Source of the DNA: a virus
Lineage: Duplodnaviria; Heunggongvirae; Uroviricota; Caudoviricetes
Direction: 5' to 3' (one strand)
IMG/VR virus record: IMGVR_UViG_641736216_000007
Length of the DNA stretch: 16,391 bases
Shown here: positions 1 to 3,625 of the stretch, piece by piece
How positions within the stretch are numbered: position 1 is the stretch's first letter
Layout of the letters: each line of letters starts with the position of its first letter
Program-made: the position numbers and the translations under genes
Notes under the pieces: generated by a model
What the model saw: only the letters and a program-made list of their open reading frames with translations
Told to the model about the DNA's origin: nothing
The model's database searches: none

Positions 1-1723
1 ATTTTTTTATACCAAGATCTTTATCATCCCAATCATAATATACCTTACCATTAGGCTTAATTATTAAGTCGTAGTATATTATAGTGTTTCCTACCTCAAA
101 AGAAGAATATTCAAGTCCTTTATGGTATTGTATCTTAAACCCATCTATTAATCTTATAAATTCAAAGTCTTGGCAAATATCGCTACCCCCAGAATAAATC
201 ATTTTATAATTATTATTATTAAATAAGCTAAGACCTATACCATCCAAAATTTTTAAATTAGATTTAGTTGTATATCTATAGTCAACTCTAAAATTTAAAC
301 TAATATCTTTAAATTTACTAAATCGATCTATAACATTCGATACATTTGAATCAGTCGTTAAAACACTATTTATTCTTACTTCCTTTTTTATATCAGTAAA
401 ATAACTATCTTCCGCTAAATTATCTAAAATCACATTATCATGTCTGCTTATACTCACACCTTTTATTCTATCTTCTGTATTAATATAATTAATAGTATCT
501 AATATCCTATTTTTAGGTAATGTAGTATTTATATAGACAACTTTATCATTATCTATTAGATTGATTAATTCTTTTAATGTGTCTAAGTCAGCAAAAGGTT
601 CTCCTCCAGTAAAAACAAAACTCTTAAATCCTTTTTTATTTAACATACTTATAGACTTTTTAATATTTTTAATATTAGGTCTATCTTTTTTATATTCCCT
701 TTTTGATGTACAAAACTCACAGTTATTTACACAATCAGAAGGCACAAATACCGTTACAGAAATATCCTCTCTTCCTTTTCTAAAGCTTATATTCAGTTTA
801 TCCATGAAGGTATCCAAATCACACCCAGCAGAAGAAGGATGCCCTCCTCCATTAAAGTTTAGTTTAGCTATTTCACTTAAATCAATATCTTTATTTGTTC
901 TCAAACTGACATTATTATTTAAGTTATTCAATATAGCTATAAAATCCAAATTATCAAATTTAGTATATAAGAAATGGCCTAAAAGACTTATTTCTCTCCT
1001 ATCATCAACACTTACTATCCCAACATTAAACTCTTGTTGTTTTTTATCTTTTAATAAATTCATTTTTCTCTGTATTAACTTTTCTCCAATTTCATTAAAA
1101 TAGTCTATTCTTCTTTTTGTTTTTAAATTTATCTTAATATTTTCTTCCTCACTAAACAATTCCTTATTATTAGTTATTTTCTCGACAATAGACTTTCTAA
1201 AATCAATTGCTCCCATTTCCTCAAATAAATCATTCAATCTTACAGCTTCAAGATTGTTAGTTTTTGTCCATGAAAAAGTATCCCAATCTTGTACTAATTC
1301 AACAAAATATTTTAATTCTTTAAAATATAAATCTGAGGGTCCAAATATGTCTTCAAAGAGAAGTTTTGTACCACAAGTTGGCTCTCCCTTTCTATCAAAT
1401 AATATAACCTTAGCCCAAAAATATTTATTTAAGTCTAAAGCTGTTTTATGATGATCTATAAGTTTAAACTTTGCTCCTTCTTTTACAACTTCATCTATCT
1501 TTTTAGCAACTTCATTTGATACACTTATATCAACTATATAAGTCATATCAAAATTTAAATATTCTTTTTTATTAATAAAATCTAATACAAACTTGTCTAC
1601 ATTGCTATAATCACATCCAACCGATTTTAAAATATTAATATTATTTAACCCTAAAACAATCTCTGAACTTTCCCCATCCATATCAATATGTTTAAATAAA
1701 CATACTTTAGCTATACTTTCCAT
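1..1723 (-). CDS. DHH/DHHA1-family phosphoesterase fused to a radical SAM domain (3'-partial, at least 574 aa; missing from the ORF track)
   Basis: Manual translation from ATG at 1723 (RBS GGGAGG at about 1733-1738) is open to the window edge. DHH motifs: H12-I-D-M-D-G17, YIVDIS, D90-H-H92, QDWDTFSW, DHHA1 motif VSLRT...NGGGH295. Radical SAM motifs: C331-VNN-C-EF-C338, FTGGEP, INTTL, VSISRH, ending ...IIKPNGKVYYDWDDKDLGIKN. Confidence 0.88.
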   Translation of the reverse strand, partial: MESIAKVCLFKHIDMDGESSEIVLGLNNINILKSVGCDYSNVDKFVLDFINKKEYLNFDMTYIVDISVSNEVAKKIDEVVKEGAKFKLIDHHKTALDLNKYFWAKVILFDRKGEPTCGTKLLFEDIFGPSDLYFKELKYFVELVQDWDTFSWTKTNNLEAVRLNDLFEEMGAIDFRKSIVEKITNNKELFSEEENIKINLKTKRRIDYFNEIGEKLIQRKMNLLKDKKQQEFNVGIVSVDDRREISLLGHFLYTKFDNLDFIAILNNLNNNVSLRTNKDIDLSEIAKLNFNGGGHPSSAGCDLDTFMDKLNISFRKGREDISVTVFVPSDCVNNCEFCTSKREYKKDRPNIKNIKKSISMLNKKGFKSFVFTGGEPFADLDTLKELINLIDNDKVVYINTTLPKNRILDTINYINTEDRIKGVSISRHDNVILDNLAEDSYFTDIKKEVRINSVLTTDSNVSNVIDRFSKFKDISLNFRVDYRYTTKSNLKILDGIGLSLFNNNNYKMIYSGGSDICQDFEFIRLIDGFKIQYHKGLEYSSFEVGNTIIYYDLIIKPNGKVYYDWDDKDLGIKK

Positions 1724-1884
1724 AAAAGAAATCCTCCCATTAAAATAAAGTTATATTTTCTAATCTATCTTATACTTTACGTATATAAAAATATAACTTT
1801 ATCATTTTAAATTTTGATTCTTTTAGCTTTAGCAATAATAAATCATAATGTTAACTTATTATTATATATAACTTCAAATTTTTA

Positions 1885-2349: not shown

Positions 2350-2991
2350 TCATTTTTCACTTAGATAATATATTATTATATTTTTCATATTTTCTAATAA
2401 TATATCTTTTTCTTTCAATGCTACTTCTTTTTTTGTGTCATTAACTATAGAATCAACTGTCTTCAATAAATTAATTAAAGCCAATTGCATTTCATTTCTC
2501 ATGTCTCTAATTGCTTTTAAATCTTCAATATATTCTTTTATATTATTATATTCATGTGCCAATGACTCAAAAGCAATTGCATATTTTACAACTATTTCAT
2601 AATGAGGACTTTCACGATCAGATAAAATATTTTCTGTAAGCCTAAACTCTTTGTCATATTGGTTCTTAATATCATATTCTTTATTAAACATAAGTTTAAT
2701 GGCATTTAATAAATATCGAGAATGTTCTTTCTCAAAGTCTCCTCCTAAGACTGAAAAAATACCCATTATCAAAGCTATGGGAATCACTAATCCCAAAACA
2801 GGTATAAATATTGCTACAAAACCTCCTATAAAAACTAAATCTTTGATAGGATTGTCACTTTGTTCTATAAAATTTAAAGACTTATTTTTATACTTAAATT
2901 TTTTAAGAACAAAAGCTATCAAGAATAATAAGACCCCTGAAACTACTTGGATCTTATATACAGGAATAATTAAATCCATTAATATACTCAT
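2350..2991 (-). CDS. Hypothetical membrane protein, paralog of 3023..3625
   Basis: 213-aa ORF with two hydrophobic N-terminal segments and a helical C-terminal region; RBS-like AGAAAGGA upstream; clear similarity to the neighbouring ORF. Confidence 0.8.
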   Translation of the reverse strand: MSILMDLIIPVYKIQVVSGVLLFLIAFVLKKFKYKNKSLNFIEQSDNPIKDLVFIGGFVAIFIPVLGLVIPIALIMGIFSVLGGDFEKEHSRYLLNAIKLMFNKEYDIKNQYDKEFRLTENILSDRESPHYEIVVKYAIAFESLAHEYNNIKEYIEDLKAIRDMRNEMQLALINLLKTVDSIVNDTKKEVALKEKDILLENMKNIIIYYLSEK

Positions 2992-3022: not shown

Positions 3023-3625
3023 TCAATATATTTCTATATTTTCTAATAACATATCCTTTTCTTTTAATGCTATTTCTTCCTTAGAATCATTAACTATACA
3101 GTTAACAACCTTCAAAAAATCAAGCAAAGATAATTTTATTTCATTTCTTATATTAATAAGTTCTTGTTCATCTTCAATACAATTCTTTATACTATTAAAT
3201 TCATTTATGCGTGATGCAAATATAATTATATTTTCTGCTACCATTTCATAATAAGGGCTTTTATCATTAGACAAAATTTCCTCAATTAGATTAAATTCAT
3301 TCTCATATTTTTCATTTTTTACTATAGCTTTTAGACTATATAATAAGTAGTTGTGATACTTACATTCAAAATTTTCTTGATAAATCTTATAAAAATCTGA
3401 TCCAATCAACATTATAAGTAAGCCAAATATAGGTATAAAAATAAATAAATAATCTTCTAATGTGAAAAATTCACTTTGATTTACAAAATCCAATTCTTCT
3501 TGATTTTGCTTTAGAAAGTTTAATAAATTATTTTTAGCCCTGGTTTTTTCTTGTATAAAAACTCTCTGTAAAAATAAGAAAACTAAACCTAATTGAATTA
3601 CATATATACAGATTAACAACTCCAT
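3023..3625 (-). CDS. Hypothetical membrane protein, paralog of 2350..2991
   Basis: 200-aa ORF, RBS AAGGAG, hydrophobic N-terminal segments; shares IFIPxxGL, YLLxxxK, SPxYE and IVNDxKxExALKEKDxLLEN with 2350..2991. Confidence 0.8.
   Translation of the reverse strand: MELLICIYVIQLGLVFLFLQRVFIQEKTRAKNNLLNFLKQNQEELDFVNQSEFFTLEDYLFIFIPIFGLLIMLIGSDFYKIYQENFECKYHNYLLYSLKAIVKNEKYENEFNLIEEILSNDKSPYYEMVAENIIIFASRINEFNSIKNCIEDEQELINIRNEIKLSLLDFLKVVNCIVNDSKEEIALKEKDMLLENIEIY

Follow-up and report, generated by a model that had tools for sequence, protein, structure and literature searches.

At the left edge of the 16,391-nucleotide stretch of DNA analysed here (the window; IMG/VR record IMGVR_UViG_641736216_000007, Caudoviricetes), a single minus-strand gene joins a DHH/DHHA1 phosphoesterase module in frame to a radical S-adenosylmethionine (SAM) domain (Table 1). 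The window is 100% identical to NC_017177.1, a circular plasmid of 300,869 bp from Clostridioides difficile BI1, and holds the first 574 of the gene's 577 codons; the three final codons and the stop lie beyond its left edge. The complete product is WP_014466325.1 (577 aa, NC_017177.1 48043-49776), which is annotated merely as 'radical SAM protein'. An earlier reading of the letters by themselves (the sequence-only reading) had proposed one open frame running off the window, and the public record bears this out by completing the C-terminus. The motifs which that reading had named are likewise all present at the spacing it gave, with C331 located 36 residues past H295 (about 35 had been estimated). 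A strong ribosome-binding site precedes the first ATG, and none is seen at the internal methionine M307. Each megaplasmid has one copy of each of the two domains, namely the fusion gene itself. The megaplasmid itself was already known (PMC6807378).

Table 1. Features of the fused gene in the window (position 1 is the first nucleotide of the window; residues are numbered in the 577-aa product; pLDDT, predicted local distance difference test)
Feature	Position	Strand	Basis or remark
Fused DHH/DHHA1-radical SAM gene	2..1723	-	ATG at 1723-1721; open frame and public record WP_014466325.1
Ribosome-binding site GGGAGGA	1732..1738	-	9 nt 5' of the ATG at 1723-1721; read from the sequence
NrnB-like DHH/DHHA1 phosphoesterase module, residues 1-311	791..1723	-	Pfam, PHROG, stand-alone matches covering query 6-311, model pLDDT 94.8
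DHH motif I, H12-x-D14-x-D16-G17	1673..1690	-	Sequence; D14 and D16 invariant in 70 relatives
DHH motif III, D90-H91-H92	1448..1456	-	Sequence; invariant in the alignment of 70 relatives
DHHA1 motif G292-G-G-H295	839..850	-	Sequence; GGG invariant and H nearly invariant in 70 relatives
Junction, residues 303-316	776..817	-	Last DHHA1 helix 303-311 (M307 at 805-803) runs directly into the radical SAM N-terminus
Radical SAM domain, residues 313-574 (577 in the record), unnamed MoaA/viperin-like family	2..787	-	Pfam, relatives, model pLDDT 95.3
C331-x3-C335-x2-C338, radical SAM [4Fe-4S] ligands	710..733	-	Sequence; invariant in 76 sequences
G373-G-E-P376, SAM-binding 'GGE' motif	596..607	-	Sequence; invariant in 76 sequences
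S514-x2-C517, position of the relatives' nearly invariant CxxC	173..184	-	First Cys lost, without a C-terminal Cys tail

As judged from its motifs and relatives, the N-terminal half is a predicted Mn2+-type DHH/DHHA1 phosphodiesterase of the NrnB (nanoRNase B) clade. All 11 columns that are invariant in the clade, as aligned with 70 relatives, are kept in the fusion (D14, D16, D65, DHH 90-92, D148, R275 and GGG 292-294). PHROG 4771, 'DHH phosphoesterase', matches this half with an E-value of 3e-21, and it is 36% identical to a 398-aa protein named NrnB-like by NCBI; the NCBIfam NrnB model gave no match to the fusion. The scores for Pfam DHH (PF01368, 23.3 bits against a cut-off of 28.1) and DHHA1 (PF02272, 22.3 against 25.9) are both just under threshold. 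Most scores of the stand-alone members of the NrnB-like clade that were tested also stay below these gathering thresholds, and since such undisputed members score equally low, the values reflect a property of the Pfam models and not decay of the gene. The AlphaFold2 model shows a two-lobe fold with a DHH lobe, a helical linker and a DHHA1 lobe, for which Foldseek returned 6mtz, PAP phosphatase, the RecJ core, NrnA, GdpP and PggH (E-values of 1e-14 to 1e-7). In the wider DHH/DHHA1 group, the established substrates are short oligonucleotides, dinucleotides, pAp and cyclic dinucleotides.

The C-terminal half matches Pfam Radical_SAM (PF04055; E 5.6e-8, 33.6 bits against a cut-off of 29.5) as well as Fer4_12, and by its motifs is expected to coordinate a [4Fe-4S] cluster, bind SAM and produce a 5'-deoxyadenosyl radical. 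Its model is a partial (beta/alpha)6 TIM barrel with Z-scores of 9-16 to many radical SAM structures; the best fold match is MoaA (Z 16.4), followed by GDGT-MAS, SuiB, viperin, ChlB, SkfB and EpeE. All structural matches are distant, at 13-18% identity and a TM-score of about 0.6. None of the NCBIfam models came near its cut-off, and the ESM Atlas neighbours are clusters of 'hypothetical protein', half of them viral. The two halves lead to NrnB-like relatives and to a MoaA/viperin-like family, in line with the two kinds of enzyme named in the sequence-only reading.

Two more specific identities of the radical SAM half were considered and rejected. NrdG, the activase of the anaerobic ribonucleotide reductase (RNR), is not supported by its model (TIGR02495, 24 bits against 131), and no NrdD match was found on megaplasmid NC_017177.1. 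For an SPL-type DNA repair enzyme as the closest relative, the Z-score to 4fhc is just 9.1 and a sequence match is missing. A role of the family in replacing an RNR is not supported either, as four of the five records carrying the family already have an RNR gene, class I/II-like or class III. On the megaplasmid, a 712-aa open frame (NC_017177.1 90406-90765) matches the class I/II RNR barrel with 42.7 bits, and in one phage (L099) a separate 170-aa weak radical SAM match lies between nrdD and the gene of the family described here.

Throughout the family, a nearly invariant CxxC is located in the C-terminal beta-hairpin. Stand-alone members often carry a Gly/Ser/Tyr-rich tail that closes with C-x3-6-C (38 of 74), and 17 have precisely C-x4-C as their last six residues (e.g. 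L097:6001-7023). The tail cysteines together with the CxxC could form an RNR-like redox shuttle or serve as ligands of an auxiliary cluster; class I/II ribonucleotide reductases have C-terminal redox-shuttle cysteines. The fusion has neither the tail nor the first cysteine of the CxxC, where S514 is found, and the fused enzyme may therefore work differently.

The fusion is a genuine, intact and conserved gene, and each half has its catalytic motifs and its fold. Its 19 variants fall into two 90%-identity clusters and come from roughly 90 contigs, mostly ~300 kb in length and all from Clostridioides; about 15 of the variants are full-length. Independent assemblies share the same 577-aa frame, as do two species-level lineages, and the fusion is retained in alleles that are 87-95% identical, including one on plasmid pESW1602 of a pond Clostridioides sp. 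Between the BI1 gene and the 87% allele, the ratio of nonsynonymous to synonymous divergence (dN/dS) is 0.08 in the DHH half, 0.12 at the junction and 0.17-0.19 in the radical SAM half, at a dS of 0.33-0.64. As the fusion is kept across variants with ratios far below 1, readthrough, misassembly and gene decay can all be dismissed. The sequence-only reading had left it to the close homologues whether the fusion would hold; all full-length variants keep the junction, and a stop near it occurs in none.

The synonymous divergence between the same two alleles is about two-fold higher in the radical SAM half (0.64) than in the DHH half (0.33), which may indicate intragenic recombination. One variant (P0197; Clostridioides sp. 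ES-S-0145-01, 77-kb contig) is annotated with 408 aa, residues 170-577, starting at M170; its DHH lobe may be disrupted, or the start may be miscalled. In four same-species RNA runs no reads fell on the stretch, which says little about expression as the plasmid is absent from most strains.

An exhaustive HMMER search of 1.84 billion representative proteins returned 1859 matches at E<=0.001, 151 of them at E<=1e-30. Among the best 150 of the 1859 matches, each one besides the fusion's own cluster covers either query residues 6-311 (proteins of ~300-430 aa) or 313-576 (266-486 aa), and the only protein among the 1.84 billion representatives to match both halves is the fusion's own cluster. Another two-domain protein would be expected to score at least 250 bits and to rank at the top; as there is none, the domain boundary is clean and the architecture unique at this depth. 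That the architecture is neither a characterised nor a common family, as the sequence-only reading supposed, is hence borne out. A search for longer proteins carrying the radical SAM domain gave only the two Clostridioides clusters, which by itself is weak evidence, and nothing was found in the literature on this fusion or on its radical SAM family.

The two domains meet with a linker of near-zero length, and M307 lies in the last predicted DHHA1 helix. Stand-alone radical SAM proteins of the family begin with M-x-F-x-x-G-R, and their Met-X aligns with I312-S313, not with M307. Residues 306-320 are invariant in 17 aligned variants, with position 305 alone varying (T/I). Side-by-side DHH and radical SAM genes were seen in none of 86 cellular or 15 viral loci of the radical SAM family (14 of them full-length phage loci), and a two-gene ancestor in none of the loci of the nearest DHH or radical SAM relatives that could be looked up. 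Of the sequence-only interpretation, the real two-domain protein with both domains looking catalytically intact therefore stands. Its proposal that a lost stop fused two neighbouring genes, with the internal Met as the mark of the event, is not supported in that form, because the radical SAM start aligns at I312, M307 lacks a ribosome-binding site and no two-gene locus was found. A join by deletion or recombination fits better than simple stop loss, since the DHH half ends about 5-20 residues sooner than most of its stand-alone relatives. The lack of any adjacent two-gene locus also argues for a lineage-specific event, probably a deletion, rather than the sealing of a widespread operon.

Within the window, the fusion gene is co-directional with its neighbours, a RecD2-like helicase gene 2.4 kb away, a helix-turn-helix (HTH) regulator and small membrane proteins. 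In the plasmid record, genes for FtsH and LigA sit past the window edge, LigA at about 6 kb from the fusion gene. Two tandem paralogous minus-strand genes (window 2350-2991 and 3023-3625) separate the HTH regulator from the fusion gene. Their products, of ~200 aa each, are probably membrane proteins, given their hydrophobic N-terminal stretches, and have similar C-terminal halves and no Pfam match; a related contig (L001) carries three copies (193, 212 and 211 aa).

The radical SAM family is large, with well over a thousand members, ~1100 of them at E<=1e-10. They are spread across gut Firmicutes as well as the prophages and very large phages of these bacteria, and most are encoded by prophages or large phages. 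The loci in Oscillospiraceae are prophage-like early regions with a divergent HTH gene and with a MoCF_biosynth-like gene and YopX downstream. Here, in 18 loci (e.g. L065:5272-5874), a DUF5662 gene lies directly upstream on the same strand. Its invariant residues (H20, H27, H47-D48, H86-H87, H93-H94 and D127) suggest a metal-dependent hydrolase; the pattern also suggested an HD-type hydrolase, a candidate to which no link was found in Pfam, NCBIfam, a PDB profile search or the Atlas. An ADP-ribosylglycohydrolase gene is located upstream on the same strand in 12 loci, sometimes with an IclR regulator in between (among them L003:4674-6975, L008:3833-6972, L057, L067, L073 and L082). In this subclade of the radical SAM family the second Cys of the CxxC is Arg, and its hosts are Veillonellaceae and an oral bacterium or oral metagenome contigs, with differing flanking genes.

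In large phages, the family is found near genes for gyrase B/A, a RecD2-like helicase, DNA ligase, an HNH endonuclease and NrdD. In one 124-kb phage (L097:4364-7023) the gene of a RecJ-type nuclease (DHH and RecJ_OB) overlaps the radical SAM start as TAATG, and the ribosome-binding site of the radical SAM gene, GGGGAGGA, lies within the end of recJ. This is a second, independent coupling of a DHH-family protein to the radical SAM family. A 153-kb phage (L094:5442-10338) has a run of nicotinamidase-like, radical SAM, Prs-like pyrophosphokinase, RlmN/Cfr-like radical SAM and Nampt-like genes. With the Nampt-like gene 2 kb from the radical SAM gene, which is flanked by the nicotinamidase-like and Prs-like genes, the run is an NAD-salvage-type cluster with two radical SAM genes; nicotinamidase-like genes are found near the radical SAM gene in three further loci. 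The partners of the family are thus repeatedly nucleotide or ADP-ribose hydrolases, or enzymes of NAD and DNA.

The account that we consider best, if tentatively, is that the fusion is a lineage-specific bifunctional nucleotide-processing enzyme of a phage-like Clostridioides megaplasmid, in which the nanoRNase-type phosphodiesterase half would feed or trim the substrate of the MoaA/viperin-like radical enzyme. As to the coupling of the two activities and the class of substrate, we infer that the DHH half would work in the same pathway, either releasing a phosphorylated substrate from a phosphodiester or trimming a phosphate off the radical product. The radical SAM half would then act on a nucleotide or nucleotide-derived small molecule, possibly related to NAD or ADP-ribose, or on a short nucleic-acid fragment. 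A nucleotide-type substrate is favoured because the fold matches include the NTP-using MoaA and viperin (Z 14.4), and because the radical SAM family sits among phage replication genes and the fusion itself near a RecD2-like helicase and LigA. Coupling to hydrolases is favoured by the RecJ, ADP-ribosylglycohydrolase, DUF5662 and nicotinamidase/Prs/Nampt neighbours. Overall, the gene context favours a part in how a phage-like element handles nucleotides, NAD and DNA over one in tRNA modification, which the sequence-only reading had suggested as a possible role beside host-element conflict.

A more far-reaching proposal, which we regard as unlikely, is that the radical SAM half represents a new phage-borne radical family that transforms a ribonucleotide or a molecule derived from NAD or ADP-ribose, fed by a hydrolase that differs from lineage to lineage. 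This hydrolase would be the NrnB-type DHH protein here, and RecJ, ADP-ribosylglycohydrolase or DUF5662 elsewhere, and the C-x4-C tail and CxxC would fit a reductive radical reaction. If this were true, the fusion would be a 'Rosetta stone' linking the radical SAM family to phosphodiester-derived nucleotides, for example in recycling the breakdown products of host RNA or NAD as the element replicates.

Several observations weigh against the bifunctional nucleotide-processing reading. An NrnB-like gene is located within 6 kb of the radical SAM gene in 0 of 86 cellular and 0 of 14 full-length phage loci, is present in only one of five phage records, about 35 kb from the radical SAM gene, and both halves together occur in 0 of the 20 phage records listed (of 21 that matched). 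The neighbours of the radical SAM family vary widely, none is universal and no neighbour family is common to at least three phage loci; the 18 DUF5662 loci may all descend from one prophage lineage and so may amount to a single event. Peptide-modifying radical SAM folds (EpeE, SuiB with Z 15.3, and SkfB) match about equally well. The DHH and radical SAM halves were modelled separately, and the models are silent on communication between the active sites.

The main rival of the bifunctional reading, somewhat doubtful but a serious possibility, is a fortuitous fusion, in which two accessory genes of a phage-type replication module, unrelated but adjacent in the ancestor of the megaplasmid, became one through a small deletion and both activities were useful and kept, without a shared substrate or pathway. 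The confinement to one plasmid family is consistent with such an event, as is the fact that the DHH and radical SAM families have not been seen to co-occur outside the Clostridioides lineage, both being common as stand-alone phage genes; the two-fold gap in dS between the halves would fit partly separate histories. The junction, however, is invariant across alleles with a dS of up to 0.64, both halves are under purifying selection, and the near-zero linker forces the domains close together. The independent coupling of the radical SAM family to RecJ, itself of the DHH family, and to other nucleotide hydrolases also argues against chance. That the gene is an artefact of sequencing readthrough or a pseudogene is barely credible: the one Clostridioides sp. 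record that annotates residues 170-577 only would be in agreement with it, but it is already contradicted by the frame shared between independent assemblies and two species-level lineages, the low dN/dS and the intact catalytic motifs.

Two further explanations concern what the enzyme may act on. A counter-defence enzyme, a special case of nucleotide processing, would use its DHH half to degrade or linearise immune signals such as cyclic oligonucleotides or cyclic ADP-ribose-type molecules, while the radical SAM half would inactivate them or make a modified nucleotide. DHH/DHHA1 enzymes hydrolyse c-di-AMP and pApA, the DHH model structurally matches GdpP, Pde2 and PggH, and the carrier is a phage-like element. 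In other loci the radical SAM family is found next to ADP-ribosylglycohydrolase and NAD-salvage genes, and NAD-salvage genes of this kind are used by phages against NAD-depleting defence. We nevertheless consider this quite improbable, as the genes identified next to the fusion gene include none known for defence or anti-defence, the context in the window is one of replication and repair and not an anti-defence island, and PADLOC gave no full-length match, its weak pVip match (E 3.5e-6) covering the cluster loop only. Very improbable is a radical SAM half that modifies peptides or proteins by RiPP-type (ribosomally synthesised and post-translationally modified peptide) or twitch-type chemistry, with a DHH half that is unrelated or regulatory. 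The top fold matches do include the peptide epimerase EpeE/YydG, SuiB, SkfB, CteB and ChlB, and half of the stand-alone relatives have Cys/Gly/Ser-rich C-terminal tails that are possible self-substrates or cluster ligands. The fused form lacks this tail, though, neither a SPASM or precursor-peptide signature nor an above-threshold RiPP family match was found, small-peptide, protease or transporter neighbours were not seen at the radical SAM loci examined, and the context is that of replication and nucleotide metabolism.

The radical SAM family has no specific Pfam or NCBIfam model, no PHROG-annotated member and no solved member, and the fusion is the best clue so far to what it acts on, tying it covalently to a phosphodiesterase with a substrate range narrow enough for testing. 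As the host is culturable and genetically tractable, an anonymous 'radical SAM protein' becomes a concrete biochemical experiment. The gene also contributes to a view of the ~300-kb Clostridioides megaplasmids in which they are phage-like elements with a nucleic-acid metabolism of their own. Nucleotide-acting radical SAM enzymes such as MoaA, viperin and QueE have each opened new biology.

Among known systems, the DHH half is closest to the NrnB and NrnA nanoRNases and to stand-alone DHH-DHHA1 proteins (COG2404 clade, PHROG 4771), with which it shares the DHH+DHHA1 fold and the DxD, D, DHH, D and GGGH motifs. Hundreds of such stand-alone proteins of ~300 aa, many of them phage-borne, share 30-42% identity with it. 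For NrnB, a known nanoRNase, no structure has been solved (PMC9779919). NrnB-type proteins of 398-432 aa extend by ~100 aa at the C-terminus; the fusion lacks this extension and has the radical SAM domain in its place.

The radical SAM half resembles MoaA, the GTP 3',8-cyclase, over 240 residues (root-mean-square deviation 3.9) and in the N-terminal CX3CX2C, and the family shares with it a C-terminal beta-sheet bearing a CxxC. It differs in its low identity and in its score for TIGR02666 (19 bits against a cut-off of 284). There is also no Mob_synth_C domain in the fusion, and the three-Cys C-terminal auxiliary cluster of MoaA has no counterpart, as only C517 of the family's CxxC is kept. The MoCF_biosynth-like gene near 10 stand-alone loci is the only neighbour related to the molybdenum cofactor, and the window has none. 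Viperins are stand-alone nucleotide-modifying radical SAM enzymes of host-virus conflict, and of all solved structures, theirs and those of the prokaryotic pVips come closest in sequence (9dfn, E 3.9e-5). These matches, however, span only the ~80-residue cluster-binding segment (residues 327-389 for the PADLOC pVip), short of a full-length match that would take in the C-terminal NTP-binding extension of viperins; a member of the radical SAM family scores 21 bits against the cut-off of 180 of NF038283, and the carrier here is a phage or plasmid rather than a defence island. Closest in concept is the TatD-nuclease-associated radical SAM family (TIGR04038), an uncharacterised enzyme regularly partnered with a metal-dependent nuclease. 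The match to it is weak (E 1.9e-4; 21 bits against a cut-off of 129.7), and where its partner is a separate TatD gene, the partner here is of the DHH type and part of the same polypeptide.

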